Source of the DNA: Sphyrna mokarran
Taxonomy: Eukaryota
Direction: 5' to 3'
Assembly (NCBI GenBank): GCA_024679065.1
Contig: JAGIQG010000009.1
Location: 91,326,001 to 91,390,000, forward strand
Length of the DNA stretch: 64,000 bases
A program made the translations under genes and the position numbers. This document shows, piece by piece, positions 3,001 to 62,200 of the stretch. The first letter of the stretch is position 1, and each line of letters starts with the position of its first letter. The notes beneath the pieces are model-generated. The model was not told the origin of the DNA and ran no database searches. It worked only from the letters and a program-made list of their open reading frames with translations.

Positions 3001-4995
3001 AATGGAGCATGAGGGAGTGGAGCATGAGGGAGTGGAGCATGAGGAAATGGAGCATGAGGGAGTGGAGCATGAGGGAGTGGAGCATGAGGGAGTGGAGCAT
3101 GAGGGAATGGAGCATGAGGGAGTGGAGCATGAGGAAATGAGCAGAGGGAGGGAGCATGAGGGAGTGGAGCAGAGGAGTGGAGCATGAGGAAGGAGCATGA
3201 GGAATGGAGCATGAGGGAGTGGAGCATGAGGGAGTGAGCATGAGGGAGTGGAGCATGAGGGAGGGAGCATGAGGGAGTGGAGCATGAGGGAGTGGAGTAT
3301 GAGGAAATGGAGCATGAGGGAGTGGAGCATGAGGAAATGGAGCATGAGGGAGTGGAGCATGAGGGAGTGGAGCATGAGGAAATGGAGCATGAGGAAATGG
3401 AGCATGAGGGAATGGAGCATGAGGGAGTGGAGTATGAGGGAATGGAGCATGAGGGAGTGGAGCATGAGGGAATGGAGCATGAGGAAATGGAGCATGAGGA
3501 AATGGAGCATGAGGGAGTGGAGCATGAGGAAATGGAGCATGAGGGAGTGGAGCATGAGGGAATGGAGCATGAGGAAATGGAGCATGAGGGAGTGGAGCAT
3601 GAGGAAATGGAGCATGAGGGAGTGGAGCATGAGGGAGTGGAGCATGAGGGAGTGGAGCATGAGGGAGTGGAGCATGAGGGAGTGGAGCATGAGGGAGTGG
3701 AGCATGAGGGAGTGGAGCATGAGGGAGTGGAGCATGAGGGAGTGGAGCATGAGGGAGTGGAGCATGAGGGAGTGGAGCATGAGGGAGTGGAGCATGAGGG
3801 AGTGGAGCATGAGGGAGTGGAGCATGAGGGAGTGGAGCATGAGGGAGTGGAGCATGAGGGAGTGGAGCATGAGGAAATGGAGCATGAGGAAATGGAGCAT
3901 GAGGGAGTGGAGCATGAGGGAGTGGAGCATGAGGGAGTGGAGCATGAGGAAATGGAGCATGAGGGAGTGGAGCATGAGGAAATGGAGCATGAGGGAGTGG
4001 AGCATGAGGAAATGGAAGGATGGAGATGGGGAGTGGAGCATGAGGGAGGAGGGAGTGGAGCATGAGGAAATGGAGCATGAGGGAGTGGAGCATGAGGGAG
4101 TGGAGCATGAGGGAGTGGAGCATGAGGGAGTGGAGCATGAGGAATGGAGCATGAGGGAGTGGAGCATGAGGAATGGAGCATGAGGGAGTGGAGCATGAGG
4201 GAGTGGAGATGAGGAAATGGAGATGAGGGAGTGGAGCATGAGGGATGGAGCATGAGGATGGAGCATGGGGATGGAGTGAGGGATGGAGCATGAGGATGAG
4301 CATGAGGATGGGCATGAGGGAGTGGAGCATGAGGGAGGAGCATGAGGAAATGGAGCATGAGGGAGTGGAGCAGAGGGAGTGGAGTATGAGGAAATGGGCA
4401 TGAGGGATGGAGCATGAGGGATGGAGCAAATGAGGGAGTGGAGCATGAGGGAGGAGAGGAAATGGAGCATGAGGGAGTGGAGCATGAGGGAATGGAGCAT
4501 GAGGAATGGAGCATGAGGAGTGGAGATGAGGGAGTGGAGCATGAGGAATGGAGCATGAGGGAGTGGAGCATGAGGGAGTGGAGTATGAGGGAATGGAGCA
4601 TGAGGGAGTGGAGCATGAGGGAGTGGAGCATGAGGGAGTGGAGCATGAGTGAGTGGAGCAGAGGGAGTGGAGCAGAGGGAGTGGAGCATGAGGAGTGGAG
4701 GGAGGGAATGGAGCGTGAGGGAGTGGAGCGTGAGGGAATGGAGTGTGAGGGAGCGGAGTGTGAGGGGTGGGCGTGAGGGAGTGGAGCGTGAGTGAATGGA
4801 GGGTGAGGGAGTGGGGTGTGAGGGAGTGGAGCATGAGGAGTGGAGCGTGAGGGAGTGGAGGGTGAGGGAGTGGAGTGTGAGGGTGTGGAGCGTGAGGAGT
4901 GGAGCGTGAGTGAATGGAGGGTGAGGGAGTGGAGTGTGAGGGAGTGGACGGTGAGGGAGTGGAGTGTGAGGGAGTGGAGGGTGAGGGAGTGGAGA
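1..4995 (+). repeat. 15-bp G-rich minisatellite (GAGGGAGTGGAGCAT)n with GAGGAAATGGAGCAT variants; degenerate at both ends
   Basis: Direct tandem periodicity over about 5 kb. The long ORFs here (MLHSL/PHAPL/SCSTP repeats) are translations of the unit. Confidence 0.97.
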
Positions 4996-5134: not shown

Positions 5135-5233
5135 CTGCAGAAGTGAAATAAATGTCAGTGAGAATGGGGAATAATCCATTCTCAGAGAGTGAGAACACAA
5201 CAAGTGTGAGGGAATGGAGATTGTGTGAGAAAT

Positions 5234-6909
5234 CTTATTCACGCAGAGTGCTGGAAATGTAGCTATGGAGAACACTGAGGTACAGGGTTGCAAATTGGGA
5301 AGTATTGTAGTAGATAGGGAGGATGTGTTAGAAATTCTCGAGGGTTTGAAGTTGGATAAGTCCCCTGGGCCGGACGGGATTTACCCTAGGATTCTCTGGG
5401 AGGCAAGAGAGGAGATTGCAGAGCCTCTGGCTCTGATCTTCAGGTCCTCGTTGGTTACGGGTGTGGTTCCGGAGGACTGGAGGATAGCGAATGTGGTCCC
5501 ATTGTTTAAGAAGGGGAAGAGAGACCTTCCAGGGAATTATAGGCCAGTGAGTCTTACTTCTGTTGTGGGCAAGGTATTGGAGAGAATTATTAGGGATAGG
5601 ATTTATAGTTATTTAGAGAGAAATGAATTGATTGGGGATAGTCAGCATGGTTTCGTGAAGGGTAGGTCATGCCTTACTAACCTCATTGAGTTTTTTGAAA
5701 AAGTGACCAAAGAGGTGGATGGGGGTAAGGCGGTTGATGTAGTATATATGGACTTTAGTAAGGCGTTTGATAAGGTGGCCCATGGAAGACTTCTACAGAA
5801 AATGCAGATGTATGGAATAGAGGGTGATTTAGCTAATTGGATTAGGAATTGGCTAGCAGATAGAAGACAGAGGGTGGTGGTTGATGGGAGATATTCATCC
5901 TGGAGTTCGGTGACAAGTGGTGTGCCTCAGGGGTCTGTTTTGGGGCCCCTGCTGTTTGTAATTTTTATAAATGATCTGGATGAGGGTATTGAGGGATGGA
6001 TCAGTAAATTTGCAGATGACACTAAAGTCGGTGGAGTGGTAGATAGTGAAGAGGGGTGTTATAGTTTACAGAGTGACTTGGACAAGTTGCAGAGCTGGGC
6101 CGAGAGGTGGCAAATGGAGTTTAATGTGGAAAAGTGTGAGGTAATGCACTTTGGCAGGAACAATAAATGTGTAGAGTATAGGGCTAATGGTAGGGCTCTT
6201 AATAGTGTTGAGGAACAGAAGGATCTTGGTGTATGTGTCAATAGATCCCTGAAAGTAGGCAGTCAAATGGATAAAGTTGTTAAGAAGGCATATGGAGTCT
6301 TAGCTTTTATTGGTAGGGGGATTGAATTTAGGAGCCGCAGCATCATGTTGCAACTGTACAAAACTCTAGTGCGGCCGCACTTGGAGTATTGTGTGCAGTT
6401 CTGGTCCCCACATTATAAGAAAGATGTGGAGGCATTGGAGAGGGTACAGAGGAGGTTTACCAGGATGTTGCCTGGTATGGAGGGCAGGTCCTATGAAGAG
6501 AGGTTGAAGGATTTGAGGTTGTTTTCGTTAGAAAGGAGGCGGCTAAGAGGGGATCTTATTGAAGCATATAAGATGATTAGAGGTTTAGATAGGGTGGACA
6601 GTGATAGCCTTTTTCCTAGGATGGAGAAAGCTAGCACGAGGGGACACAGCTTTAAATTAAGGGGTATGAGTTATAGGACGGATATCAGAGGTAGGTTCTT
6701 TACTCAAAGAGTGATTAGGGAGTGGAATGCCCTGCCTGCAGCTGTTGTAGATGCGCCAAGTTTGGTGGCGTTTAAGAGGTTAATTGATAAGTATATGGAA
6801 GAGAAGGGAATGGTTTAGTTTGGAGGGGCATTGCTTTTTATTTTGGTCGGCACAACATCGAAGGCCGAAGGGCCTCTTCTGTGCTGTAATGTTCTATGTT
6901 CTATGTTCT
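5234..6909 (+). mobile_element. 5'-truncated CR1 LINE with open RT-containing ORF2 C-terminal part (5265-6818), short 3'UTR and (TGTTCTA)n tail
   Basis: RT motifs GVPQGSVLGP and KFADD. AAAT duplicated at 5230-5233 and 6910-6913; the paralogous intron near 44900 is the empty site. Confidence 0.95.
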
Positions 6910-7190
6910 AAATACTCATTCTCACACTCCCCTCCATCCTTACACTTTATGGAGATCCTGTAGATCTCTTCCATTCCATCCATATTCAGTAGGTGAGGAT
7001 GTGAGTGTGTGCGGTGGCTTTAATGATCAATATTATACCTGGACTGGGCTGATCACACAAAGGAAAATGAGACAGGGAACAAGATGTGTTTATACGTGTG
7101 TATTTGTGTGTGGGAATTAAATCAGTTCATTCAATACAATGTCCCATATTCCCATTACTGGAGATTCCCCACACTCACTCTGTCCCCTCA

Positions 7191-7432
7191 TTGTAGCACA
7201 AAGTGGAGTAATGCTGCATCACTGTACCAGAAACCCAGGTTTGATTCCTGGCTTGGGTCATGGTCTGTGTTGAGTCTGCACATTCTCCCCGTGTCTCTGT
7301 GGGTTTTCTCTTGGTGCCCTGTTTCCTCCCTTAGTCCAAAAGGTTTTGATGCATTGGCCATGCTAAATTCTCCCACAGTGTACCCAAACAGGTGCCAGAG
7401 TGAGGCGACTAGAGGATTTTACAATGAAACTT
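7191..7432 (+). mobile_element. tRNA-headed V-domain SINE (HE1-related, non-CR1 tail)
   Basis: B-box-like GGTTTGATTCC and V-domain TTCTCCCCGTGTCT...TTTCCTCCC...TCCAAA; absent from the paralogous intron near 45180. Confidence 0.75.
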
Positions 7433-8430: not shown

Positions 8431-8489
8431 AATTTCACATGCACATATACACACCGCAGTAACCACAGAACAGTTTGACAGTTCCTTAC

Positions 8490-8768
8490 CCAACTGATAG
8501 AGCTTGGGCTCTTCCAGGCTGCTGTGTTCAATTTGACAGGAGTATTGATCCTCATCCCCAGCATTTATTTCAATCTCTTTCTGGATCTGATGGGTTCCAT
8601 CGTGGTTCGGTCAAATCCCTGAGGATAGTGTCTCAGACATTACCTCTCCATTCCTTAACCACTTCACCTCAATGTCTACAGGATAAAAGCCAGTAACCAG
8701 GCAGGAGAGAGTGAGGGGCTTGGACTGACTATTGGGCTCACTTCTGGAGATGAAGACTTCAGGCTGAA
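8490..8768 (-). pseudogene. Gene A alpha3 (C1-set Ig) exon with premature stop
   Basis: 279 nt; LSCLVTGFYP...W...YSCQIEH; TGA at 8613-8611. Confidence 0.93.
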
Positions 8769-8885
8769 CTGTAATGGGAAAGAGTGAAAACACAAACAAT
8801 AAACCCACACTGAATAGAATGGGGGAACAGTTTGATAAATCAGTGAAGTTAGAGCAGAACATGGAGTCAAAACTGAATTCAGTAC

Positions 8886-9161
8886 CTTTCTTTTTGAGAT
8901 ATTCCTTTCCAGCCTGGTAATATCTTCTTAAATTCTGGGCCCATTCTACTTCCAAACTCCATTTCCAAAACTTGTTCCAGGATTGATCTGAATTCCATTT
9001 CTCTTTAGTCTTCACTGCAAAGTGATTGGATGCGACCCATCTCATTCTGTCTGGCTCTAAACTAATATAGTCCTTCCCATCAAATCCAAACCGCATCGAT
9101 CTCTTAATGGAGCCGTCTTCAGTGACCTCGACAGACTGAATCCATTGGAAAATATGGATTC
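8886..9161 (-). pseudogene. Gene A alpha2 exon (open frame, no cysteines)
   Basis: 276 nt; GIHIFQW...FGFDGKDYISL...KTKEKW...LRRYYQAGKEYL. Confidence 0.93.
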
Positions 9162-9984
9162 CTGTCAGAGAGCAAATGATGATCAATATTCAGTGAACTG
9201 GAGGATTGGAAATATTGCTTTGTTAATCAATAAAGTGGAGAAATGATCTTTGTGATAGAATTGTCAGCAAAACTGAAATCCCTGGAATAAAATAAGCAGC
9301 ATCAGAATGTAAACAAATTTGCCGAATGGATCGGAAACAGAGTGGCCAGGATTCTCCCAAAATAATTCAACTGTCAAATTCGTTTGAAACCTGGAGTAAA
9401 TCACGTTTGTTTTTACAGCGGGAGTTTCAAAATGAATCTCCCACAATATGTACATTGCAGAGAGCACGAGCAGGTTTCACACTGAAAAGCTGTCAGTGGG
9501 GCCTATTCCCGCTGGAGAGACTGACAGCAAAGTGCTGAGTGGGCCACTGCACATGTGTCAATCAGTCAGATTGGTGCATGCTCTGTAGCCCCTGGCTACT
9601 GGCCTCCCAATTGCCGGCCGACTCGATCGCTGGTCAGTTCTGAAATTCCCACAACGTCAGCCCTTCACCGTTCCCAACCGCACCCCCCTGCCCAACTCTC
9701 CTCCTCCCCCCACCTCACGGCCCGATCTCTGAACATTCGCGCACCATTTCCAATCCCAACCCCGCCCTTCCAGCCCGCCCTAATCTCCAGTACCCTCTGA
9801 TCCCACATACTCTTGACAATTACCCCTCCCCACAGTGCCAACCATTCCACACTCCGTAGTGCCAGCACGCCCTCCCCTGTGTAAGGCAGCCCCACTACCC
9901 CCCACCTCCAGCGCGCTGACCCCACACCCACACCGATGGCCAGCCCTGATCGTTGGCCTTCCTTCCTCCCCCATGATCCTCCAT

Positions 9985-28077: not shown

Positions 28078-28149
28078 GGGGGCATAGCTTAGCGTTAGAG
28101 CATTTAATTGCAAATTAAGAGGTGCCTGGTTCAAATCCAGGTGTACCCT
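28078..28149 (+). tRNA. tRNA-Cys(GCA)-like gene or pseudogene
   Basis: 72 nt, GGGGGCATAGCTTAGCGTTAGAGCAT...GGTTCAAATCC. Anticodon arm TTTAA-TTGCAAA-TTAAG, perfect T-stem CCTGG/CCAGG, T-run directly after. One acceptor-stem mismatch. Confidence 0.75.
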
Positions 28150-28154: not shown

Positions 28155-28630
28155 TTTACCAGGATGTTACATGGTATGGTGGACATTAGCTTCGAGGAGA
28201 GGTTGGAGAAACTTGGTTTGTTCTCACTAGAATGACAGAGGTTGAGGGGAGACCTGATAGAAGTCGACAAGATTATGAGAGGCATGGACAGTATGGATCG
28301 TCAGAAGCTTTTTCCCAGGGTGGAAGAGCCAATTACTAGAGGTCCAGCTTTAATGTGCGAGGGGCAAGGTTTAAGGGGGATATATGAGGCAGATTTATTT
28401 TTACAGAGGGTGATAGATGGCTGGAACTTGTAGCTGGGGAAGTAGTGGAACGGGTTATGGTAGTGACTTATATAGGGCATCTTGACAAATATATGACTAG
28501 GATGGGAATAGAGAAATATGGTCCCCTGGAAGGTTAACGGGTTTAGTTAAGCCGGGCAGCATGGTCGGTGCAGGCTTGGAGGGCCAAAAGGCCTGTTGTC
28601 GTGCTGTAATTTTTTTTGTTCTTTGTTCTA
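28155..28630 (+). mobile_element. CR1 3' fragment beginning at the FTRML codons
   Basis: LRGDLIEV and KLFPRVE motifs; tail GGGCCAAAAGGCCTGTTG...TTCTTTGTTCT. Confidence 0.88.
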
Positions 28631-28719
28631 ATTGAATCAAGTTTGTCTCCTTTTTTTTGAAGGATTATTTAGTCTCCATGGTGTGAAGCCCCCAGCATGA
28701 GGCACTGTGGAAGCAGCCT

Positions 28720-32230: not shown

Positions 32231-32249
32231 CCAGAGTTGGCAACATGAC

Positions 32250-33025
32250 GTCGGCTGAGAGGGGATCTATTAGAGGTATATAAGATTATAAGGGGTATAG
32301 ATAGGTAAATGGTGGTAAGCTTTTTCCACCATTAGAAATGGATAGAACAAGGGGTCACGGCCTTAGGGTGAAGGGGGCTATGTATAAGACTAATATTAGA
32401 GGGCATTTTTTCACACAAAGGGCAGTGGGGGTGTGGAATGCACTACCGAGTAAGGTGGTGGGAGCAGGCACGCTAGGGTTGTTTAAGGGTCTCTTGGACA
32501 GCCACATGAGCGGTCTGCAGATAGAGGGGTATAGCAGGACTGTCTAAATATCTTATTTGTTTCCACAGGCAATTCGGTCCACCTTGTTGACCAACAAGGT
32601 GCATGCATTCGGCAGGTCGTGCGAGGGCTGCTCTTGGATGTTGCTTCAGGAGTGGCCTAGTGCTTCAAGTCGTTACTGTATGCTTAAACTGGACCATCTG
32701 ATGGGCAACATGACAGCTCAGAGAACATCGCTGTTGCTGTGCAGACACATAGATTTGGGCCTGTGTCTGCGGGAGTTTGCGTGTTCTCCCTGTGGTTGCA
32801 TGGGTTTTCTCCGGGTGCTCCAGTTTCCTCCCACATCCCAAAAATGTGCTCTTAGGCTGATTGGGTAACAAATTGTCCCTATATTGGTCCCTCTATGGGA
32901 ATCTTCCACAATAGGCATAGCCTAAAGTCATGGATATGTCATTAAGACGTTAGGACGGCGGCGCAGGCTCATTGGGCCGAAGGGCCTGTTTCCCGTGCTG
33001 TGTTACTCTTTGTTCTTTGTTTTTT
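32250..33025 (+). mobile_element. CR1 3' fragment (xYxRTV subfamily) with V-domain 3'UTR
   Basis: ORF2 end 32338-32547; UTR homologous to 14208-14670. Confidence 0.9.
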
Positions 33026-36000
33026 GTATGACACAGTATTAAGGAATCGTGAGCAGCAGTCCCTACGGGTTACCTCCCAGAGGCCTATTCCATGTGTTGG
33101 ATGGATACAACAGATAGAGTCATTGTTACAGAGTCATTATTATCGATGCTCTAACCCCAAGTCTACACAATTTTATCTATACTTCCCTTCATGGCTGGTA
33201 GAACAAGGGTCGTGAGAAGCAGCAAGAGAATCATCCTATCACTTAATTATAACCCGCGCGACTGTTATCCAATGGACCAAAGGCTATATCACTGGTGTGC
33301 AATTTCCCGTACACCAGTTCAGCTTGCCTGGAGACCAATTATCTCATGGATCTGTGAATTGAGTACATTACATATTTTTCCAATTGGTGTCGGTATATTT
33401 TTTTAACTGAGTCCGATGTTTCCTGACGTCCCTGCCTTGCATATCTACGGCGACACAGATATCACCACTGATTATGACCTCATAGAGGCCATTCCGTTTG
33501 GGGGTGAACTCAGGCTTTCCAGGTAACGTCTTCATCATAACCTTGCTGCCCGCTGGGTGGGGGGGTATCTCAGGGGCCAGTGCTAGCTCATTTTGCTCAT
33601 CCTTCACTATATGGTTTTCCCTTTCTCTTTTTCACATATCCTTCAGTTCGGCGCTTAGTTCTAAAACATATTGTCTAAATCTATCCCGTAATGGGCCCAT
33701 ATCTGTCCCACCGGTAATAATGGACTTGGACAGTTGCACAGCCCTTCTGGTCATTCGCTCACATGGAGTCAACCCAGTGGTTTGATTCGTAGTGGCTCTG
33801 AGTTTCATTAATATGGTGGGTAACACCTCGGTCCATTTTTTTCCTGAATACTGCATGGCCTTTGCCAGGGAGGTCTTTAGTGTTCTATTCACATGCTCCA
33901 CCATTCCCGAGCTTTGAGGATGAGAGGGTATGTGAAATTTCTGTTTTATCCCATCAGTTGACATACAGTTTTTATTACCCTCCCCGTGAAGTGTGTGCCT
34001 TGATCGGATTGTAACAGTACCCTCCATTTTGGGATAACTTCGTCAACTAATATTCTCACCACCGTAATGGCTGAACAATTTTTAGTCGGGAATGTCTCTA
34101 CTCATTGGTGAATTGGTCAATTATCACTAAGCAGCAGGTTCTCCCATGTGACTGTGGAAGAGGTCCTGTAAAGTCAATTTGTAGATGTTCCCTGGGGCCC
34201 TTAGGGTGAGCTGGTGCCTGATCCTGATTTGTTTACTCCCTGGGTTATACTGGGCACAAATTACATACCAATGACAATACCATGCAACATCCCATCCTAT
34301 TCCTTTCCACCACCACTCTTTCCCTGTACTGGTTGTCATGGCATCTCTCCCCACATGTGACAGTCCATGAGATAACTACATCTGGCGCTAGAATATCATT
34401 TAATCACAAGCAGCCTTTTTATCAAATGTAGCTCCCTGAGCTTTCCACCTCGCACACTCTTCTTCAGGTGTATCAGCATGTAGCTATGAGATGTCTGTTG
34501 GGGGTTCAACAGTAACCGAGGCAGCTGACACGGCTTGCAATTCTCTTGTTTCTAAGGCTGATTGTGTTGCTTTGTCAGTTGCCTGGTTTCCCTTAAAAAT
34601 ATATCATTCAGGGTTTTGCTTATCTGGTCCCCTTTGGTGTGCTTTTAACTTCAATACCTCAACTTCCAGGGGGAGTTTGCTGGCATCTAATAAGGTTTCA
34701 ATTATCTGTCCATGCTTGATTGAGATACCTCCCATTGTAACAAATCCCCTTCTTCCCCAAACAGCCATTTAGGCATGCATAATTGCAAATGCATATCGAC
34801 TGTCAGTGTAAATCTTGACTCTTCTCCCCGCCACCTCAGTAAAAGCCTGGGTCAAGGCCGCTCGTTCTGCCACTTGTGCTGACATACGTCCCTCTATTCT
34901 TCCTGCTCGGACCACTGCCCATCCTGTTCGCAGTAACCCAACTACATACTTCTGTAACCCATCCGCAAACAGGGTCAACTCCGGTGCCTCCAAGGGCACA
35001 TTCTTTATTCTATTTTCCTCTATCTCCTCATTGATGCTTCTGCACGTGTGTTATTTCCCTTCATCTAACATTCCTTCAGCGGGGTTCTCTCTCATATTTC
35101 GTACGATGGTGATGGAATTAGAGAGGGGATGAAGTACTGCCTCCCATTTCGCCCTTCTCATATTTGAGACAGATCATAATTTTCCAGTGTTTAACATTTC
35201 CACCAAGGTATGTTTGGTGTGCAAGACTATATTTCCCATCATTACAATGGGCTAGCTGACTTTTACTGCCCGTGCCGTGCAATCAAGCGAGGCTGTACAC
35301 CAGGGTAATCCAAATACTACAGAGCCCTCAGCTGTAGAATAATATCCCACCGGCCGCTACTTGTCCCCATGGGTTTGGGTTACTACTGCCAAATAGAACC
35401 CTCCTTCACTGTTACAGTAGATATGGAAATCCTTGTTAGTCCTTATTGAACTGGTAACCCTTGTCCTGAGGCCCACATTAATCCTGCTTTTAGATTACTA
35501 TATGCCTCTTCCTGTTACGATCCCCACTCCACAATTTTAGAGTGGGTTCCCCCCTTTTAATTGCCTTTGGATTGGCTCAACTAATTTGGCATATTCTGGT
35601 ATGAAGTTGTGGCTGTAATTAAACAATCCCAAAACCTTCCTTACCCCTCAGACAGTTACTGGTCTTAGCCTTTGTTGTATTGTCGTTTTTTTTTGGCTAC
35701 AGGCATTTCCTTGGTCCTTTTGGATATTAAATGTCACAAATATAGTACCTGTGGTTTTCCTATTTGGGCCTTTTTAGGGCTTGCCTCAGTCCTCGATCTT
35801 CTAAGTGCTTCAAGACTGAGTATAGTGCTGTCTGATGTTCTGCATTAGTTTCAGAGGCTATCAAGATGTCATCTATATACTGTAAAATTTTGCTCCCTTT
35901 CAGGAGTTCCACTTGTTCCAATATCTTACTTATTACCGGTGAAATATGGCTGGGCTGTTATGGAATCCCTGAGGGAACTTAGTGCATGTAAACTGCTTAT

Positions 36001-44443: not shown

Positions 44444-47400
44444 CTGCACAAACAGGGAAAGTTGTGCAACATGTAACCGAACTCCACAATCTCTGACGCT
44501 GTGATAGGAAAGTCTGGCAAAGTGACTCCTGACCTGTGCAGGTACTGGGAACAGGAATTCAACAACCTGATTGTCCTCTTCATTCTTAACATGTTTTGTA
44601 TATTCTATTATACACTTCTAATGATTTTGAAAAACATTTTTGATGGAATCTTGACAAATGCCAGACACATTGAAGATTTTAAAAGTTACATTGAAAATCT
44701 TTCAGAAAGTGCGGAATGTCCATCAAATGTGAATGTATTTCATTCCCAACAATCTGTCCCTCAGTCACTCACTGGAGCTGTTGTGTACATCCCACTTGGT
44801 GAATCTGCAGAAGTGAAATAAATGTCAGTTAGAATGGGGAATAATCCATTCTCAGAGAGTGAGAACACAACAATTGTGAGGGAATGGAGATTGTGTGAGA
44901 AATACTCATTCTCACACTCCCCTCCATCCTTACACTTTATGGAGATCCTGTAGATCTCTTCCATTCCATCCATATTCAGTAGGTGAGGATGTGAGTGTGT
45001 GCGGTGGCTTTAATGATCAATATTATACCTGGTCTGGGCTGATCACACAAAGGAAAATCAGACAGGGAACAAGATGTGTTTATACGTGTGTATCTGTGGA
45101 TGGGAATTAAATCAGTTCATTGAACACAGTGTCCTGTATTCCCTGTACTGGAGATTCCTCACACTCACTCTGTCCCCTCAGTTCGACATTCCCCTCTCTC
45201 TGATTCTTACCTCTCCGCTGTCTTTTCCAGATGATTATTCCGATTATTCCAAATATAACAGCCAGTGCAGGGATCACTGCTCCGATTATAATTCCAAGAT
45301 TATTTTGTTTCCCACTGTTTTCTGGGATTTCTGAAACACATTTGAATTATATGAAGATTGTCTCTCTGTTCCCAGATCTATTCCCAGTTCTCTGTTCATT
45401 GGGGACAATTGGAACTGAAGCTGCCCATCTGGGAATTGATGGGATTGGCTGAAATGCTGGTTTTATACTCGCCCCATTTCAACCTCCAGTGAAGTGACGA
45501 AAGGTTCCCATTGATGGTGTTGTCAAAGCCGTGTTATCTCAATCCCACAGGATACCTTCCCAGCCAGTTCAGTTCTAACTCTCCCCAATGTCATAGAATC
45601 ATAGAACCTTACAGTGCAGAAAGAGGCCCTTCAGCCCATCGAGTCTGCACCAAACACATTCCCACCCAGGCCCTAACCCATATACCTACAGATCATACCC
45701 ACTAACCCCTCTAACCTACGCACTCCTGGACACGAAGGGGCAATTTCTTAGCCAATCAACCTAACCCGCACATCTTTGGACTTGTGGAGGATACCCACGC
45801 AGACACAAGGAGAATGCGCAAACTCCACACAGACAGTGATCCGAGCTGGGAATCAAACCATGGGTCCTAGAGCTGTGAAGCAGCAGTGCTAACCATTGTG
45901 TTACTGAACCAGCGTCTGTGTGTCCTGTCCTTGATCAATCCCAGGGTTACATTGTACGTCTCAGCAGGCAGCATCGCTGATAGTTTTCACATCAAACTTT
46001 AAAGGGATTGCAGGAAACTGGACGGAGCTGAGAATAAGGAAATCCACAGAGCAAATGTTTCCAAAGAAGCACCTGGTCCAATCCAGCAGCAGGACTTAGT
46101 CCTAAATCACTGCACTGAGCCCACCATGGAATAGTGAAAGAATCCAACACAAAGATTTCACAAATGTCCAGAGATTGAGTTCCAGACACTTAGACAACTA
46201 TCAGCTGGTCAAAAAGAGACAGGATGGATTTGTGAAGGGAACATCATGTCTGACTCATCACAGTAAATATGGTGAGAAGCACAATAACATAAAGAACAAA
46301 GAACAAAACAGCACGGGAAACAGGCCCTTCGGCCCAACGAGCCCACGCTGCCACCCCGATGTTCCCACTTCTCCCCGTGATCCCTGTCCATGTTTATAGA
46401 TCTATGGATTAAAAACCAAATTTGAGAAAATTTAGGGAGAATTTGTTTTGCCAATTAGCCTAAGAGCACATCTTTGGGATGTGGGAGGAAACCGGAGCAC
46501 CCGGAGAAAACCCACTCAAGCACGGGGAGAATGCGCAAACTCCCACAGACACAGGCCCAAATCCATGTATCTGCACAGCACAGCGATAGTCACTGAGCTG
46601 TCGTGTTGCCCATCAAATGGTCCAGGTCAAGCGTACACTAACGACGTGAAGCACTAGGATACTCTCGAAAAGATCCAAGAGCAGCCCTCTCACGACCCAT
46701 CACGTGTATGCCCCTTGTTAGACAACAAGGTGGACCAAAGCACCTGTAGGATTAAAAACAAACACATCAATATCATCATCTATTTACACATTTCCCAGGG
46801 ACTCCCAAGGCTCATGATCCCTATTTTAAATCAGTTTTCTATACCCCTCCATTCCCATTCTGTTCATGTGCCCATCTAAGTATGTCTTAAATAACTCCAG
46901 AGTACCTGCCTCCACCACTTTACTTGGCAGCGCATTCCATACCCCCACCACCCTCTGTGTGAAAAAACCCCCTCTAGCATCCAAATTATACCTTACCCCC
47001 CTCACCCTAAGCCCGTGACCCCTCGTGCTATTTGAGTCCATCCTAGGAAAAAGCTTAGCCCTGTTTACTTTATCTATCCCCTTCAAAATCTTGTACACCT
47101 CTATCAGATCTCCTCTAAGTCTACGTCTTTCTAAGGAAAACAGTCCCAATTTAACTAACCTCTCCTCGTAACTCTGACCTTCCATACCAGGCAGCATCCT
47201 GGTAAACATCCTCTGCACTCTCTCCAGAGTCTCCACGTCCTTCCAGTAGTAAGGCGACCAGAATTGGACGCAGTATTCCAAATGAGGTCTAACCAGCGTT
47301 TTATACAACTGCAACATTAAAGGCCAGCTCTTGTACTCTATACCCCTTCCTATAAAGGCTAGCATACTATATGCTTTTTTCACAACCTTCTCCACTTGCT

Positions 47401-50400
47401 CTGCCACCTTCAGAGACTTGTTCACCTGCACCCCCAGGTCCCTCTGCATTTCTATACTCTTAATAGGTCTACCCTTTATCATATACCTCCCCTCTACATT
47501 CTTTCTCCCGAAATACATCACCTCACATTTATCAGGATTGAATTCCATCTGCCATCTGTCTGCCCAAGCTACCAGCCTATCTATGTCCTGCTGTATTGCC
47601 TGACAATGCTCCTCACTATCCGCAAGTCCAGCCATCTTTGTATCGTCGGCAAACTTGCTGATCACTCCACTTACTCCCTCTTCCAAGTCATTTATATATA
47701 TTACAAATAGAAGAGGTCCCAGTACCGAGCCCTGCGGCACACCACTAGTGACCAATCTCCAGCTAGAGAAACACCCTTCCATAGTGGACAAGGGAGTGTC
47801 TATGACAAATTTGGTTTTTAATCCATAGATCTATAAACATGGACAGGAATTGCAGGTAGAGTTGGGAACATCAGAGTGGCGGCGTGGGCTCGTTGGGCCG
47901 AAGGGCCTGTTTCCCGTGCTGTTTTGTTCCTTGTTCTTGCAATACAGACAAATACACGTGCATGTATACACACACGCGCGCGCACACACAGTATAGTTTG
48001 ACAGTTCCTTACCCCACTGATGGAGCTTGGGCTCTGCCAGGCTGCTGTGTTCAATTTGACAGGAGTATTGATCCTCATCCCCAGCATTTATTTCAATCTC
48101 TTTCTGGATCTGATGGGTTCCATCGTGGTTTGGTCGAATCCCCGAGGATAGTGTCTCAGACATTACCTCTACATTCCTTAACCAGTTCACCTCGATGTCT
48201 ACAGGATAAAAGCCAGTAACCAGGCAGGAGAGAGTGAGGGGCTTGTACTGACTATTGGGCTCACTTCTGGCAATGAAGACTTCAGGCTGAACTGTAATGG
48301 GAAAGGGTGAAAACACAAACAATAAACCCACACTGAATGGAATGGGAGAACGATTTGATAAATCAGAGAAGTTAGAGCAGAACATTGAGTCAAAACTGAA
48401 ATCAGTACCTTTCTGTCCAAAATATTCCTTTCCAGCTTGTAAATATAACAACAAATCCTGGATAAACTTTTCTTCTAGACTTGTTTTCCAATATTTGTTC
48501 CAGGATTGATCCAAATCCCATTTCTCTTTAGTCTTCACTGCCATGTGATTGGATGCGACCCATCTCATTCTGTTGGGCTCTAAACTGATATGGTCTTTTC
48601 CATCAAATCCAACTCTCATCGATCTCTTTATGGAGCCGTCTTCAGCAATCTCAACAATTAGGATCCATTGAAAAACGTGAATTCCTGTCAATAACCAAAA
48701 ATCAATAATCATTTATTCCCAGAAAGTCGCAATTATCTAATCAATGGGGAAATGAGCAATCATACTAGAATGGTGTCAAAGGATTTGAGGATTACAAATG
48801 TTACACCCTCATTGATTACACTCCAATCATTGAAAACAAAGGCACGAGGACCAGAGAACCTCAAAGGGGAGGAAAGGGGCTAAAAGGGAGATAGTTGTTC
48901 GGGGATGGGAGGGTTAAAGGAATAGATAGGCGCTTCTGTGGTCCAAGGCGGGACTCCAGGATGGTAGTTTGCCTCCCTGGAGCAGGGGTGCAAGATGTGT
49001 CAGACAGGGTAGAGGGCATTTTGAAGGGTGAGGGGGCCCAGGTGGATGTGATTATTCACGTAGGAGAGAAGGATGTAGGAAGGAAGTGCAGGGAGGATAT
49101 AAGAAGGCAGTTCAGGGAGTTGGGGGGTAGGCTGAAGAGCAGGGCCTCGAAGGTGGCGATCTCAGGTCTGCTTCCAGGTGCGGGTAATAGCGGAGCCAGG
49201 AGAAATGAGATCCTACAGCTGAATGCGTGGCTGAAGGACTGGTGTAGGGCAGAGGGTTTTGTATTTGTGGATAACTGGGAATTCTTTGGGAAAGAAGGGC
49301 ACCTGTATAGAAGGGATGGGGAACACTTGAATGGGAAGGGTGTGAATATCTTAGCTGGGAGGTTAGCTGGAGTGTTTCGGCAGGATTTAAACTAATATAG
49401 AGGGGGGGAGGGGCTGAGACCGATAGCTCGGTAGAGAGCGAGATGGGAGATAGAGTAAGCTTGGACGAGAAAAGATGCACCAGAGAGAAGTAGGTTCCCA
49501 GTGGTCTTGGAGGTCTGGAGTGTGTCTGTTCCAATGCGAGGAGCTTAACGGGAAAAACGGATGAACTTAGGGCCTTAATGTTTGTGAGGAACTTGGATGT
49601 GGTTGCAGTGGCAGAGACCTGGTTAAAGGAAGGGGAGCAGTGGCAACTGAACATTCCTGGATATAAGTGTTTCAGGCGTGACAGAGGAGGGTCCAGAAGA
49701 GGTGGGGGAGTGGCCTGGTTAGTTAAGGAGAGCATCACGGCAGTGCAGAGGGAGGACAATACAGAGGAGGTAGGAGTGGAGTCGCTGTGGGTGGAGATGA
49801 GGAATAGAAAGGGGGCAATTACTATGTTAGGGGTGTATTATAGGCCACCCAACAACCCACGGGCAGTTGAAGAAGGCATATGTAAAGACATTTTGGATAG
49901 GTGCAGAAAGAACAGAGTCGTTATAGTAGGAGATTTTAATCTCCCTAGAGTGGATTGGAAAGTACCTAGAGCTGGGGGTTTGGATGGGCAGGAATTTGTA
50001 AAATGTGTACTGGGAGGATCGTTGGAACAGTATGTGGCTAGCCCGACTATAGAAGGACTATATTGGATTTAGTTCTGAGTAATGAGCCAGGGCAGGTGGT
50101 TGATGTTGTAGTAGGGGAACATGTGGCTAACAGTGACCACAATTCTGTCTACTTTAGGATACAGATGGAAAAGGATGCTTGTTGCCCTAGGGACAGGGTG
50201 CTGAATTGGGGGAAGGCTAACTATGGTCGAATTAGGCAGGAATTTAGGGAAACTGATTGGGAACGGTTGTTTGAGGGTAAGTCCACGCTAGGCACGTGGG
50301 ACTCTTTCAAGGGAATACTGAAAATGTTGCAAGATAAGTATGTGCCGGCCAAGAGGAAAGATGGGAAAGGTAGGATTAGAGAGCCGTGGATTACTAGGGA

Positions 50401-53184
50401 TATTGAGGACTTGGTTAGGAAGAAAAAAGAAGCGTATGATAGGTCGAAGCAGCTGGGAACGGAGACAGCATTGCAGGAATATAGAGAGAGTAGGAGGGAG
50501 CTCAAACAGGCAGTTAGAAGGGCAAAAAGGGGGCATGAAATGATTTTGGCAGATAAGATTAAGGAAAACCCAAAGGCTTTTTATTCCTATGTTAGGAATA
50601 AAAGGGTGATTAGAGGAAAAATCGGACCTCTTAGGGACAGAGGAGGGGAACTGTGCTTAGAGCCCGAGGGAATGGCGGAGATCCTGAATGAATACTTTGC
50701 GTCGGTATTCACGAAGCAGAGGGGCTTATTGACAGCTCCTGTCACTGAGGGAGCTGTGGACCAGTTGAGGGAAATATCCATACCGAGGGAGGAAGTGTTA
50801 GAGCTTCTAAGTAGCATTAAAACTGATAAATCTCCAGGGCCTGATGGCATTTATTCCAGACTGCTTAAGGAGGTGTGAGGTGAAATTGCTGGGCCTCTGA
50901 CGCAAATCTTTGTCTCTTCCTTGGACACAGGTGAGGTCCCAGAGGACTGGACAATAGCTAATGTTGTACCGTTGTTTAAAAAGGGTAGTAGGGATAACCC
51001 TGGAAATTATAGGCCGGTGAGCTTGACGTCAGTGGTAGGGAAGCTGTTGGAGGGGATTCTTAGAGATAGGATGTATAGGCACTTAGAGCGTTGCGATCTG
51101 ATTAGGGATACGCAGCATGGATTTGTTAAGGGGAGGTTGTGCCTTACAAATCTGGTAGAATTTTTTCAGGAGGTGACAAAATCAGTGGACGAAGGGCGAG
51201 CCGTTGATGTTGTCTATTTGGATTTTAGTAAGGCGTTTGACAAAGTCCCTCATGGGAGGTTAGTCGAGAAGGTCAAGGCAAATGGGATACAAGGACAGGT
51301 AGCTAGATGGATAAGTAACTGGATTGGTAATAGGAGACAGAGAGTAATAGTGGAAGGGTGTTTCTCTAGCTGGAGGTCAGTCACTAGTGGTGTGCCGCAG
51401 GGCTTGGTACTGGGACCTCTTCTATTTGTAATATATATAAATGACTTGGAAGAGGGAGTAAGTGGAGTGATCAGCAAGTTTGCAGACGATACAAAGATGG
51501 CTGGACTTGCGGATAGTGAGGAGCATTGTCAGGCAATGCAGCAGGACATAGATAGACTGGTAGCTTGGACAGACAGATGGCAGATGGAATTCAATCCTGA
51601 TAAATGTGAGGTGATGCATTTTGGGAGAAAGAATGTAGCGGGGATGTATATGATAAAAGGAAGACCCATTAAGAGTATAGAAACGCAGAGGGACCTGGGG
51701 TTTCAGGTGAACAAGTCTCTGAAGGTGGCAGAGCAAGTGGAGAAGGTTGTGAAGAAAGCATATAGTATGCTAGCCTTTATAGGAAGGGGTATAGAGTACA
51801 AGAGCTGGCATTTAATGTTGCAGTTGTATAAAACGCTGGTTAGACCTCATTTGGAATACTGCGTCCAGTTCTGGTCGCCTTACCACCGGAAGGACGTGGA
51901 GACTCTGGAGAGAGTGCAGAGGAGGTTTACCAGGATGCTGCCTGGTATGGAAGGTCTGAGTTATGATGAGAGATTAGGCAAATTGGGGCTGTTTTCCTTA
52001 GAAAGACGTAGACTTAGAGGAAATCTGATAGAGGTGTACAAGATTTTGAAGGGGATTGATAGAGTAAACAGGGTTAAGCTTTTTCCTAGGATGGACTCAA
52101 ATAGCACGAGGGGTCACGGGCTTAGGGTGAGGGGGGTAAGGTATAATTTGGATGCTAGAGGGAGTTTTTTCACACAGAGGGTGGTGGGGGTATGGAATGC
52201 GCTGCCAAGTAAAGTGGTGGAGGCAGGTATTCTGGAGTTATTTAAGAAATACTTAGATGGGCACATGAACAGAATGGGAATGGAGGGGTATAGAAAACTG
52301 ATTTAAAATAGGGATCATGAGCCTTGGGAGTCCCTGGGAAGTGTGTAAATAGATGATGATATTGATGTACTTGTTTTTATCCTACAGGTGCTTTGGTCCA
52401 CCTTGTTGTCTAACGAGGGGCATACACGCGATGGGTCGTGAGAGGGCTGGTCTTGGATCTTTTTCGAGAGTATCCTACTGCTTCACGTTGTTAGTGTATG
52501 CTTGACCTGGACCATCTGATGGGCAACACGACAGCTCAGTGACTATAGCTGTGCTGTGCAGATACATGGATTTGGGCTTGTGTCTGTGGGAGTTTGCGCA
52601 TTCTCCCTGTGCTTGCGTGGGTTTTCTCCGGGAGCTCCGGTTTCCTCCCACATCCCAAAGATGTGCTCTTAGGCTAATTGGCAAAACAAATTCTCCCTAA
52701 ATTGTTTCAAATTTGGTTTTTAAATCCTTAGATCTATAAACATGGACAGGGATCGTAGGTAGAGATGGGAACATCGGGGTGGCGGCACAGGCTCGTTGGG
52801 CCGAAGGGCTTGTTTCCCATGCTGTTTTGTTCTTTGTTCTTTGTTCTTTGAAACCTTTAGGGAGAAAATTATCCTGAAGTCTTCATCACCAGAAATCAGC
52901 CTGATAGTCAGTACAAGCCCCTCACTCTCTCCTGCCTGGTTACTGGCTTTTAATCTGTAGACATTGAGTTGAACTGGTTAAGGAATGGAGAAGTAATGCC
53001 TGAGACACTACTTTCTGGATTCAACCAAATCACAATGGGACCCATCAGGAAAGAGATTGGAAAGAGATCTGGAAAGAGACTGAAATAAATATTGGAGATG
53101 AGGCTCAATATTCCTGTTAAATTGAACATCGCAACCTGGCAGAGCACAAGCTCTATGAGTGGAATAAGGAACTGTCAAACTATA

Positions 53185-53217
<33 letters not shown>

Positions 53218-56200
53218 TGTGTGCGTGTGTGTTGATGTAAAAACCATCAGTGATACTGCCTCCTGGGATGTAGAACATAACCGTGGGAATTGAACAAGGG
53301 CAGGACACACAGACATTGGGGAGAATTAGAACTGAACTGGCTGGGAAGGTATTTCATGTGATTGAGATAACACGGCTTTGACACTACCATCAATGAGAAT
53401 CTTTCGTCACTTCACTGGAGGGTGAAATGGAGCGAGTATAAAACCAGCATTTCAGCCAATCCCAAGAATTCTCAATGCGCAGCTTCAGTTCCAATTGTCC
53501 CCAATGAACAGAGAACTGGGAATGGATCCGGGAACAGAGACAATCCTGATATTATTCAAATATGTTTCATAAATCCCGGAAAACAGTGGGGACATTTCCA
53601 CCTTGGAATTGTAATTGAATCAGTGATCTCAGCACTGGCTTTTATATTCAGAATAATCAATTGTATATTGATTATTATATTGATTATAAAATAATCAATT
53701 TTATATTCAGAATAACCAATTGCTGTTTGTTTCAGAAATGGATGAAATGGAAGATCCCAACATGGATGTCCCTGAAGCCAGGTTTCAGGGAGAAGTTGAG
53801 GAAAGGCCGACTGCAGTTGTCAGAGAGGCTGGAGAGCAGCTGTGTGGGGTGCCCATAGATATTGAAAGGGAGAAAAATCCCTCTCCCTCCCACAGGAATA
53901 CCAGAAAAGAACAGTGTGGATGGAGAGTGAAATAAGTGAGATTTTATCACAGCAGCAAATAGACAAGGAAGGAGATTACAGGGGCTCTGACCCAAATTGT
54001 TAATTCTTCTCTAGCCACAGGGGAAGTGCTAGAGGATTGGAGAACAGCTAATGTGGTTCTGCTGTTTAAGAAGGCTTGTAGGGATAATTCAGGGAATTAC
54101 AGACCCGTGAGTCTCATGCCAGTGGAAGGAAGGCTATTAGAGAAACTTCTGAATGAAAGAGTCTATCTCCACATGAAGAGGCAAGGTTTGATCAGGTATA
54201 GTCACCATGGTTTTGTCAGAGGGGGGCCATGCTTAATAAATTTGGTTGAATTTTTTGAGGAGGTCACCAGGTATGTTGAAGAGGGTGGTGCAATTGATAT
54301 AGCTTATATAGATTTCAGCAAAGTGTTTGACAAGGTCCCAGATGGGAAGCTTATAAAGTAAGCAAATCCGCATGGGATATAAGATAATTTCATAACTGAA
54401 TTTAAAATTGACTTAGTTATTGGAGACAGAGGCGATGACAGAAGGCTGCTTCCGTGACTTGAAGCCAGTGTCCAGTGGGGCACCACAAGAATCTGTGCTG
54501 GGTTGTACATTATTTGTCATTTATGTAAATGATGCAGATAACTATATTGGGAGAGGGGGTGAGATTAGTAATTAGTCCCAACATTGGACAGAAGGTTAAC
54601 AGTGAGGCGGAGTGCCTTGGGCTACAAGAAGATATAGATGGAACAGCAATTGGGCAGATGGAATTTAATCCTGAAAAGTATGAGGTGATACATTTTGGAA
54701 GGATGTATTTAAATGAATGCCATGACATTAGGAAGCTTTGTGAAACAAAGTGGCCTTGGCGTGTTTGTCTCTAAAGGCAAAAAGACATGTTAGCAGGATG
54801 GTGAAAAATGCATATGGGACACTTGCCTTTATCGATTGAGGCACCGATTTCAAAAACAGGGAAGAGATGTCGGAATTGTACAACTTTGGAAGGATGTGAT
54901 TGCAGTGGAGAGGGTGCAGAGGAGATACACTAGGATGCTGCCTGGGATGGAACATTTAAGTTATGAAGAGAGGTTGTGTAGGTTTGGATTATTTTAGCAG
55001 CTGGTAACTGGTCACTGGGTTGTTGCTGATCAGAAGCTGCATCAATTCGAGATCCAGCTGCTGTCAGATGGACCTGCACTGTTTCTGTATTTAAAACTGA
55101 CAGGAGTGATTCTATTGGGGTTATTTGTGTTGCTGGCATCCCAGCTCTACATAATTCATGTCTTTGTATTGCTTCTTGTGAAGGGACCTTGCAGCATCCT
55201 CCATGTGGCTGTAAGGGCTCACCTGAAGAAGAAGTAACACTCTGAAAGCTTGTGCTACCAGATAAACCTGTTGGATGTTGTGAGGCTTCTTAGTGTACTT
55301 TTTGTTCAAGCAGAGAAGACTGAGGGCTGACCTGATCAAGGTGAACAAGATTATGAGGGACACAGTGGACAGAGAGAATAGGAAGCAGCTATTTTCCTTC
55401 GTTGAAGGGTCAGTACAAAGGGACACAAGTTCAAGGTGAGGGGCAGTAGATTTAGGACAGATTTGAGGAAAAGAAGTTTTACCCAAAGAATGGTAATAGC
55501 CTGGAGAGTGTTGCCTGGGAGGGTGGTAGAGGTGGGTTACCTCACATGCTTTAAAAAGTATCTGGATGAGTATTTGGCACAAAATAACATTTAAGGCTAT
55601 CATAGCTATCCTAATGCTTCATAGCTATCCTAATGCTTCGATCAAATAACAAGGGCTCAGAGATGGAGAGCTGGTGATCTGAGTATTGTCCCAGACTTGG
55701 GACACTCCCTACGTTAACACCCTGAAGGGGTAAGGAGTCACTGTGTCAGTTCAGCTGTCTTCCAGCCAGGATGCTGAGCCTCTTGTTGATCTGAATGTCA
55801 CTCTCGTTCTGCCCACAGTTCAGTTAGAGCCTCAGCACCCTCTGTGAGCCGGGGCCCAATGTCTTCATGTCTCCTTTCCGCCCCCCCGAGCTGCTATCAC
55901 TGAGTCACCACCACCTCCAGCCACTGTGTCCAAAGACAGCACTGTCAGAAGAACACATTGACACTGAGCGGTGAATGAGGGCAATGTAATTGATGTCGTC
56001 TACACGGATTTGCAAAATACTTTTGAGATTGTACCATGTGAAAAACTTGTCAATAAGACTGAAGCCCTTGGACTAAGTTGAACCATAGTGGGATATCTGG
56101 AGGTGGGGTGGGAGTGTTTGAGGAGCTAGTATTGCTTTTTGCTCAGTTGATAAAATGCTAGTGTGTCAATCAGATTAATACAATAGCGCAGGAGTTGATC

Positions 56201-59200: not shown

Positions 59201-62200
59201 CCCACAGTGCTCTTAGGGATGATTTTGATCCCAAAACAGTGAAAGAACAGTGATATATTTTTGAATCAGGATGGTGAGTGATTTGGCGAGGGACTTGTGG
59301 TGATGGCGTTTCTATGTATTTACTGTCGTTGTCCTTGAAGGTGACTGAGGCATTTTAATTTTTAAATAGAGTAGGAAGGTGTAATACAGCTCATATATTT
59401 TAATTAATCAATTGTGGAATAATATTAACTTGAGCTTACATTGCACATTTAATGTGGTATGTCCCAATGAATCTTATCTGATAAAACTGTTAAATGGCCA
59501 AAAGCTTGGTCAAACAGATAGATCTTAAGGAATATCTTAAGTAGGGGAGGAATACGAGGGGGTTTAAGATTGAACTTCTCAACCTTAGGTCGAGCTAACT
59601 AAAAACATGGCACCAATGAATGAGGATTGGAAGTTAAGGGTGTACAAGAAACTAAAAGTAAATGAATGCAAGTTGCTCAGAGGATTGTAGGGCTGCAGAA
59701 GGTTACACATTGGGGTAGCATGGTGCCATAGGAGGATCTGAAAATGAAATTGTGAATTCTAATTTCAAGCCTGAAATCAATGCAGGTCGTCAGTAAGCAC
59801 AGGCACAAGAGTAGAATTTATAGTAAATCATACTGTCAGAAACCTCCCAAATCTCTTCATGTACAATCAAGCCATCCAAAACGCTGCTAGCCATATCTTA
59901 TGTCACATCGTGTCCCACTCTTCCTGGCATACACTGTCACGCAATATCCTGAATTTAAATCATCATTCTTGTTTTCAAATCCATTCCTGGCTTCATCTCT
60001 CCCTGCCTGTAATCATCTCCAATCCCACAACATCCCAAGACATCTGCACTCCTTCAGTACTGGCTTCTTGAGCATGTGTATAATTGCTGCACCATTGGTA
60101 GCGATGCCTTCAGTTAACCAGGTAATGAGCTCTGGAATTTCTGCACTGTACCTGTTCACTTCTCTTGCTTTCTTCCTTTCAGATACTTCTAGAAATACCT
60201 TTCAGACCAAGCTTTTGATCATTACAGCTAATATCTCTTTCTGTGGTTTAGTGTCTTTTTTTCACAGTGTTCCTGTGAAGCACTATGATGACTTCAGCCA
60301 TTCTAATGAAGTTGGCTTCTAGAGTATGAAGCCCTAAGTTAATTTGAGTTAGTTTATTTGTTTGTATACAAAAGAGATACCCAATTTTTCTCACAATCGA
60401 TGCCTTCCACACTGCAGGGGCTAGCGTATATTACTGACCCCGAAAATCACATTATGATTTGGTGTTTTAAATTTCCTTTCTAATTTGTTTTTTGTTGAGG
60501 CTGTTCCTTCTCCTTTAGGAGGTCTGCTCCTTTTAATTTGTCCTTAAGTTAATTTGAGTTAGTTTATTACGTTGGCACATGTTAAGTTCTAATTGGTTAA
60601 ATCAGAGAGCCTCGTGCTCCCTATTCAAAGCAGATTTGTCAGTCTCTCAGCCTGCATTTAGCAGGGAGCAATTGGAGAGCTGGCTGTGTGCAGATCTATG
60701 TTGTAAATAAAGTAATTTGTGATGGGACTTTCACTTCTGTGAAGTTATACAAGCACTTTGGAAAATTTTGTTACAATGAAGGCTCTCCACAAGTTGACAG
60801 TGTTACTATTGAATTGTTTTGAAAAGTGGCTAATGTTGTGATGAAAGCAAACAGCTTCATTACAGTATTACTGACAAGAAGCAATTCTTCACCTAAAGAG
60901 GGATCAGTGACTGAAGTGGTCTCCAGATAGAGGTATGGGTTTAGGATACTCACTATCCTTTCTCCACGACATGGGTACAGGGTACATGAAATAGAGGCCT
61001 CAGATCATTATGCAACAGAAGAATACAACTAACTCCATGTACTGCTTGGAAGTCTTGTGGTTGATTGGGAAGAATTGTGCCTCTGAGTCAGAACCTCTGG
61101 CATCTCCAGAACTTGTTCTCTGCTGGAGAATAGTTCATGATGAGAAATAATCTGTTAATCGTAGAATCCTTACAGTGCAGAAGGAAGTCATTCAGCCCAT
61201 TGAAACTGCACCGCCAAAAGTGTCACCCAGTCCCAATCCTCATCATGCCATATACTTACTTTGCTAGTCCCTCCGACATGAAGATCAATTTAGCATGGCC
61301 AATGAACCTAACCAGAACACCTCTTGGACTGTGGAACGAAACCAGTGCACCCAGAAGAAACCCATGCAGACACAGGGAGAACACTTAGACTCAGCACAGA
61401 CATTGACCTGAGGCCGGAAATGAACCCAGGTCCTCGGTGCGGTCAGGCAGCAGTGCTAACCATTGTGCCACCGTGCCAACCCAAATTTTATATCTAATTT
61501 TATATTAATGGAGGCGGAGGCATTATCTTAGGGTTTATCTGGGCAAAAAGACTTGTTTGCATAATGGAAGAGGTTAAATGAAGATTGGTGGAGTATGTTT
61601 GAAAGGATTCAATCTCTAATGAAATGTTGAGCAGAGAAAAGACAGGCTGCAGTTCCATTTCTCAACAACTGACTTTCTAGATTATAACAGCAGGGATCAA
61701 TCATTCTCATCACAGAACTTGTGGATTTGTAACCTCTGCCCTGCACAATATGCTACTCTGCCATACAAAGTAGAGATTCAAAAGTGTTCCCTTATCCAGT
61801 ATAAAGTTAATCACAGGAGTGTCAATGTAAAGATCTCAATCAGAACAGGAAGAAGGAACAGAATCACTCTCCATATCTCCCTGATTCATGGACCCACACG
61901 CTGTATACCCCAGGGTCACAGTCTGCAGTATAACTGTGGTTAGGTACCTGTCTGACACACATTAAACAGTCAGTGGGAGATTGGACATCACTGATCTTAC
62001 CGGATGTTTGGTTTGTGTTCTTCATTATTGAATTCAGACTCTCCTTTGCCATGTCTGATCGTACATTTACGACAGATGTAAGCTGTTCCCAAAATTCCTC
62101 ATCAAAAAATTCCACCATGAATTGCTGTCTGGGAATCATCCGACGAATGTGAGTGTCATGATAATTAACTTGAACTCCTTTCACTATTGCAACATTAGTA

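Follow-up and report, generated by a model that had tools for sequence, protein, structure and literature searches.

A 64,000-nt stretch of the Sphyrna mokarran genome (assembly GCA_024679065.1, contig JAGIQG010000009.1, positions 91,326,001 to 91,390,000 of the forward strand; "the window" below) holds CR1 long interspersed elements (LINEs) whose 3' untranslated region (UTR) has gained an internal insert of about 460 nt ahead of the LINE's own tail. The insert includes a 3' splice acceptor, a unique segment, and the remnant head and V-domain of a V-SINE, a type of short interspersed element (SINE). Between carrier subfamilies the V-domain has changed far less than synonymous sites of the same LINEs, which points to selection in the active lineages. 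We think it probable, on balance, that this module behaves in the LINE's RNA much like a terminal exon, aiding processing, stability or export, and hence mobility in cis, a function inferred from the conservation, splicing and folding results below.

The names used here are partly our assumptions. The LINEs are taken to be CR1 from their domain layout and their tail, and the trees below include families of this one genome only. The domain is presumed to be V, following a sequence-only reading of the window made without database searches. The free SINEs of the window are, on the same grounds, presumably of the HE1 type.

The carrier LINEs

The focal LINE (48839-52849, +) ends its second open reading frame (ORF2) with a stop at 52304-52306, followed by a UTR of 543 nt. 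The layout that the sequence-only reading gave for it (the stop, about 210 nt of unique sequence, head-like sequence from 52521, a V-domain and a CR1 tail) is present in the sequence. Its description of this copy as active-looking was wrong, since the focal copy is dead: it is truncated at its 5' end inside ORF1 at 48839, carries two frameshifts (near 48900 in ORF1 and near 50058 in ORF2), and has a stop at 50876-50878 in ORF2. The description does fit subfamily C, in which 2 of 11 long copies keep an uninterrupted ORF2 of 989 amino acids (aa), against 0 of 20 in the focal subfamily, A, and 0 of 9 in subfamily B. (A 1,092-aa frame in copy L235 was rejected as an intact ORF2; it ends well ahead of the ORF2 stop.)

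Subfamily A has seven full modules in the window, with ends near 10806, 21400, 36868, 40088, 42354, 46291 and 52849, in agreement with the earlier count of at least seven; two more 5'-truncated A fragments are at 17460-17627 and 47806-47938. Two other module-bearing copies had been assigned to one second subfamily and prove to belong to two distinct ones, B and C, that are 82% alike (Table 1). A further CR1, rightly said to have no module, has a UTR of 92 nt. Searches of the genome (2.77 Gb) gave 40 scored copies each of A and B at 96-97% and 40 of C at 98-99%. Further carrier subfamilies are A2 (older) and B3, and B2 is known from four loci; the carriers make up a single CR1 clade with at least five subfamilies. 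Eighteen module-bearing copies occur in a random sample of 80 evenly spaced 10-kb blocks (800 kb), which extrapolates to about 60,000 genome-wide. Subfamily A is 4.7 kb at full length, with an identical 5' end reached by 22 of 29 ORF1-bearing copies and an ORF1 frame of 322 aa in its consensus. The 3' UTR of carriers is 470-545 nt long, compared with 50-90 nt in other sampled CR1 families.

Conservation of the V-domain

Conservation was tested on subfamily consensi that represent two deep lineages (A and B/C), with B2 taken from one copy and with copies chosen as best matches. Fourfold-degenerate ORF2 sites differ at 115/294 (39%) between A and B, 129/285 (45%) between A and C, 53/331 (16%) between B and C, and 29/150 (19%) between A and A2, the last value replacing a first estimate (13/38) that was too high. 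The V-domain differs at 9/117 (8%), 12/117 (10%), 6/117 (5%) and 6/118 (5%) positions for the same pairs. This is below the fourfold rate by Fisher tests (p of 2e-11 for A/B, 0.002 for B/C and 5e-4 for A/A2), and for A/C both halves of V are below neutral. Across six subfamily sequences 102 of 118 V columns are invariant. The proposal that V is kept across subfamilies, with its comparison to neutral change, is therefore upheld (5-10% against 16-45%), except as a feature of V alone: the head is equally conserved (7% for A/B, 15% for A/C, 11% for B/C, 7% for A/A2) and the unique segment upstream of it partly so (20%, 32%, 22% and 11%). The spacer behind V, in the same order, has diverged by 51%, 59%, 64% and 33%, and the tail by 0% in all four pairs, with 44 of 45 columns invariant.

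V changes at 0.060 in 20 dead copies of A2, compared with 0.051 in the spacer and 0.064 in the unique segment, so low mutability is not the source of its low divergence between subfamilies. Of 19 informative columns in the module, 14 agree with the split in the ORF2 tree, and 11 V columns set all carriers apart from both free SINE families; neither swapping of segments nor conversion by SINEs, therefore, explains the conservation.

Splicing and predicted folding of the LINE RNA

The first part of the insert ends in a pyrimidine tract and the acceptor CAG/G (the slash marks the junction), kept in all six subfamily sequences although these 25 nt turn over by 44-56% between lineages. By a home-made score this acceptor ranks first of 499 AG sites in A, first of 482 in B and tied first of 417 in C. 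Before any search for spliced copies, position 94 of B had been listed as a strong donor. A search for B exons without the tract returned eight matches, one of them spliced: in L345 the element's first 47 nt are joined exactly from the 5' UTR donor CTG/GTGAGT to the acceptor, with 4,143 nt and both ORFs removed and the tail repeat intact, although 2 nt (G/G) are shared at the joint and a chance deletion is formally possible. L376, of subfamily A, is probably a second spliced retrocopy: at the same junction it carries about 14 nt from the end of the homologous A exon. The acceptor, which had no place in the sequence-only reading, is used, occasionally.

Other candidates were rejected. L342, another of the eight B matches, has a deletion inside ORF2 without GT, and the rest of the six-match search that yielded L376 consisted of three mutated acceptors, one unrelated sequence and L345 again. 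No ORF1-only spliced copies of A were matched. No host exon is spliced onto the A acceptor in the 30 of 179 junction candidates inspected; each was a point or indel variant, an insertion, or a copy cut short at its 5' end beside unrelated sequence. None of 20 C candidates, which are of the same kinds, is spliced, the 5' end of C not being known, so that its own donor could not be matched; and no joint to the acceptor is among those listed for assembled contigs of DNA-like depth.

The unique segment together with the head is predicted to fold more stably than shuffled sequence (z of -2.7 to -6.1, 60 shuffles). A consensus-derived structure, which came from related sequences, is 93.5% paired in 16 copies and has seven pairs with changes on both sides (9/500 shuffles). 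The unique segment has no match in 1.87 Mb outside the carrier LINE clade and none in Rfam (best E 6.8). At the 3' end the tail has a predicted fold with z of about -3, a stem-loop followed by a short tandem repeat as in CR1-clade LINEs.

A possible role in the LINE's own RNA

The explanation we favor would have the module work like a terminal exon of the Pol II transcript. Acceptor and folded RNA may aid 3'-end formation, stability or export of an mRNA that stays mostly unspliced, and complete splicing to the 5' UTR donor would be a rare by-product, an ORF-less RNA of about 500 nt. Active descendants would have conserved the insert, likely through its action on the LINE's own RNA. Several results weigh against such a role. 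Short-UTR CR1 families of this genome are both young and plentiful, and the module is therefore not required for CR1 mobility. Spliced copies are rare, with one against 790 exact unspliced matches in B and 0 of 20 candidates in C. The V-domain by itself has no unusual folding energy (z of -0.65 to 0.1), and an unconstrained consensus fold of the 16 copies is a different structure. For B/C (27/123) and A/A2 (15/131, p 0.07) the unique segment shows no significant reduction below neutral, and for B/C neither does the head. Change in the spacer outpaces that at fourfold sites; these may therefore understate the neutral rate, and the spacer may have been replaced. With two deep lineages only, the tests are non-independent.

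Among the alternatives, a role at the DNA level survives best, though we regard it as unlikely. The module would serve as an enhancer, a transcription-factor site or a shield from silencing in master copies, with splice site and hairpin incidental to it. Conservation alone cannot separate an RNA role from a DNA role, V by itself shows no unusual structure, and enhancer activity is described for other SINE central domains (PMC4824008). However, the acceptor is conserved in composition rather than in sequence, and is used, and the upstream hairpin has changes on both sides of its pairs.

A shade less likely is that the spliced RNA is itself regulatory, the element splicing out both of its ORFs to limit or tune its activity and V acting in the ORF-less RNA. 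L345, the probable case of L376 and the top rank of the acceptor among the element's AG sites are all in keeping with this. Retrocopies of that kind, however, number only one or two, C and the contig joints yield none, and no ORF1-only form exists among the A matches; spliced copies of human L1, moreover, are dead ends according to PMC5860796.

We give still less weight to a neutral passenger, in which recent exchange of segments between lineages, or chance, would account for the low divergence. SINEs commonly exchange modules (PMC11481361), and short-UTR CR1s thrive without this one. The fit of module sites to the ORF2 tree nevertheless speaks against it, as do the LINE-specific V letters common to all subfamilies, and the spacer has diverged by a third to nearly two thirds while V and tail on either side stayed fixed.

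We also offer, tentatively and as rather unlikely, a wider version of the favored explanation: V would be an RNA element that needs no promoter of its own and is of benefit to whichever retrotransposon carries it. The LINE would have domesticated the core of its parasite and outlived the free SINEs, and the acceptor would switch between a coding mRNA and an ORF-less, SINE-like V-RNA that tunes the element's own mobility.

Origin of the insert

Direction and site are given by comparison with other CR1 families. A tree was built from 81 of the 241 usable ORF2 ends, after thinning of the two largest clusters; it unites the carriers in a single clade (support 100/99) nested in short-UTR families. 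A second tree that includes family E supports the carrier clade at 99/97 and places E as its sister with moderate support (92/91). The module is absent from all 25 copies of E, which has the empty site: CATGAGC is followed directly by the tail, where A and A2 have CATGAGC, about 460 nt, and then the tail. Because this sister family is without the module and has the empty site, it is the LINE that gained the insert. The random blocks and the window together hold 128 CR1 ORF2 ends, of which only those of A, B or C type have the full module directly behind them. The carriers' tail is identical to that of E at 50/57 positions, including (TTTGTTC)n, compared with 40/57 for the free V-SINE family S0; the tail therefore belongs to the LINE itself, and the SINE went into the 3' end without replacing it. 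The sequence-only reading had the direction right, from SINE to LINE, as the clade nesting and the sister family bear out. It went too far in having the LINE take the SINE as its 3' end, since the insert is internal and stands ahead of the LINE's own tail.

The LINE-borne head begins at the first base of the SINE and is collinear with it for 57 nt, consensus against consensus. With transition-aware scoring of consensi, 0 (A), 0 (A2), 1 (B) and 26 (C) of 500 shuffles each scored as high; copy against copy with plain scoring, the likeness is not significant (659-1389 of 2000 shuffles scored as high). The resemblance claimed for the head thus holds for consensi under transition-aware scoring, weakly for C, and fails for single copies under plain scoring. 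The 18 nt that follow the head in the SINE, box B included, are missing from LINE-borne copies. Free SINEs have 0 mismatches to the box A and box B patterns and LINE-borne heads 2-3 (A) and 4-5 (B), so the loss of box B that had been noted is confirmed. The LINE-borne V-domain is 81-86% identical to the consensus of S0 and 80-83% to that of a second family, S1. Neither SINE body likeness nor a second decayed tail is detectable in the spacer (not significant against the post-V parts of the SINEs), and none of the module-bearing matches in the 800 kb and the window, a small sample, starts at the head.

The two free V-SINE families have median identities of 79.5% and 81.8% to their own consensi (87% and 91% at best); they are older than the carriers, which reach 99%. 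S1 has head and V in common with S0 and an unrelated tail, so this genome has V in carriers of three kinds.

These comparisons suggest that an ancestral CR1 LINE with a short 3' UTR gained an insert consisting of acceptor, predicted stem-loop, box-B-less V-SINE head, V-domain and spacer. The insert may have come from a host transcript or locus in which a V-SINE was already present just downstream of an exon boundary, either by template switching or by insertion with one tail lost afterwards. The internal Pol III promoter would have been silenced when box B was lost. The idea that the LINE's 3' end was exchanged for an entire SINE, tail included, is disfavored and improbable: head, V, spacer and tail do stand in SINE order, the spacer (75-92 nt) is close to the SINE body in length (70 nt), and an extinct SINE with an E-type tail is conceivable, but the tail is closer to E than to the SINE, and E has the two flanks of the insert side by side. 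That V was native to the LINE UTR and taken up by SINEs is highly improbable; LINE UTRs can supply SINE bodies (PMC5786205), yet this LINE holds a tRNA-head remnant from the SINE's first base, its clade is nested among V-less CR1s, and V-SINEs extend to cnidarians and bivalves (PMC4824008).

Variation among carriers and other features of the window

Subfamily C, the youngest carrier, ends in poly(A) in place of its sisters' (TTTGTTC)n (L240-L250; window 14660-14690), and its spacer has been replaced and is A/T-rich. B3 (L321-L340) has an extra insert of about 80 nt between stop and acceptor with its own T-tract and AG. The 5' end of B (L232:560-700, L235:660-800) is made up of repeats of one unit, and a TATA box stands about 30 nt ahead of the start common to most full-length copies; one contig of A has the same repeat, which from its sequence looks like a tandem promoter consumed on copying. 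CR1 copies nested in other CR1 copies are seen at L261, L274, L282, L285 and L384, several at or beside the acceptor site.

Table 1. Parts of the focal LINE, and other LINE and SINE copies in the window
Feature	Position	Strand	Remarks
3' part of ORF1 (SGNH/GDSL esterase)	48839..49395	+	Pfam Lipase_GDSL_2 E 1e-8; subfamily-consensus alignment
ORF2 (endonuclease + reverse transcriptase)	49311..52306	+	Pfam Exo_endo_phos, RVT_1
Ancestral UTR stub ending CATGAGC (left edge of insert)	52307..52322	+	In sister family E CATGAGC directly precedes the tail
Insert start, ending with pyrimidine tract + CAG (3' splice acceptor; exon from 52389)	52323..52388	+	
Unique 133-nt segment, predicted three-way junction with long hairpin	52389..52520	+	
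Remnant head of a V-SINE (tRNA-derived), without box B and with an altered box A; collinear with SINE positions 1-57	52521..52580	+	
V-domain and conserved bases behind it	52581..52698	+	
Fast-changing spacer	52699..52780	+	
CR1 3' tail: stem-loop + (TTTGTTC)n	52781..52849	+	
Subfamily C copy with module (young family, poly(A) end)	13777..14674	+	
Subfamily B copy with module	32247..33027	+	
Control CR1 family, short UTR, no module	5229..6910	+	
Free V-SINE, family S0	61157..61476	-	
Free V-SINE, family S0	45597-45900	-	
Free V-SINE, family S1	7199-7420	+	

A 293-aa open frame at 47831-48712 (-) combines an MHC class I alpha-2 part with an Ig C1 domain and is intronless; related pieces lie at 8436-9167 (-) and 52873-53222 (+). 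From these frames, the window seems to hold class I-like genes and gene fragments in a cluster. Sharks have a nonclassical class I lineage with fused extracellular exons. At window positions 2-4994 a 15-nt tandem array of 339 copies leaves more than 1,500 codons open in all three minus-strand frames, none of which has a Pfam match; the array is likely a minisatellite. A tRNA-Cys call at 28078-28149 (+) directly precedes a CR1 3' fragment (28155-28636), and the two could be a tRNA-LINE chimera.

Relation to known systems

SINE central domains are conserved from cnidarians to fish, and the reason is an open question: their role is called unknown, and the ideas put forward for their conservation (RNA stability, transcription, host benefit) are all untested (PMC4824008 and PMC11481361). 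In the carriers described here V is conserved in lineages that lack a Pol III promoter and multiply only as LINE RNA; this favors a benefit to the element over one to the host. A SINE is hard to test apart from its promoter and partner; a LINE-borne copy makes the V-domain testable, with an intact-ORF carrier (subfamily C) and an empty-site sister family (E) as natural controls.

No V-domain in a LINE 3' UTR is reported in the literature searched, though a repeat-library entry may hold the sequence unremarked. The accessible text of a vertebrate CR1 survey mentions "UTR" once, for the 5' end (PMC13343379). A Repbase-wide comparison of LINEs and SINEs gives no match for conserved SINE bodies, pairs matching at the 3' terminus having been dropped (PMC5786205). 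That paper also describes SINE-like sequence in LINE UTRs: Ingi-3_AC with a piece like Ceph-SINE or RTE, and RTE-1_DAn with a tRNA-like piece. Those pieces, however, lie in the 5' UTR or at an unspecified position, lack a V-domain and are of uncertain origin.

The carriers resemble other CR1-clade LINEs of cartilaginous fish in their esterase ORF1 (a CR1-clade trait; PMC13343379), endonuclease-reverse transcriptase ORF2, 3' stem-loop with short tandem repeat, and frequent 5' truncation. They differ in the SINE-derived insert and acceptor in a long UTR and, in subfamily C, in the poly(A) end. Among these LINEs, HER1 is the listed partner of HE1 (PMC3747384). With V-SINEs such as HE1, DANA and Ac1 (PMC4824008) the module shares a tRNA-type head, V-domain and CR1-type tail in the same order; in contrast to these, it has lost box B, has an altered box A, is not independent, and is copied within an autonomous Pol II transcript.

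MER6/MER6A is a long-inactive, non-autonomous DNA transposon with a head-less or promoter-less V-SINE inside (PMC6887750). The accessible text gives no selection test for that V, whereas in the present case V sits in an autonomous retrotransposon and shows signs of constraint. The SpIREs of human L1 (PMC5860796) are likewise retrotransposed copies of spliced LINE RNA; the L1 cases lie within the 5' UTR or span 5' UTR and ORF1, whereas the acceptor described here follows ORF2, its use takes out both ORFs, and it is apparently maintained.
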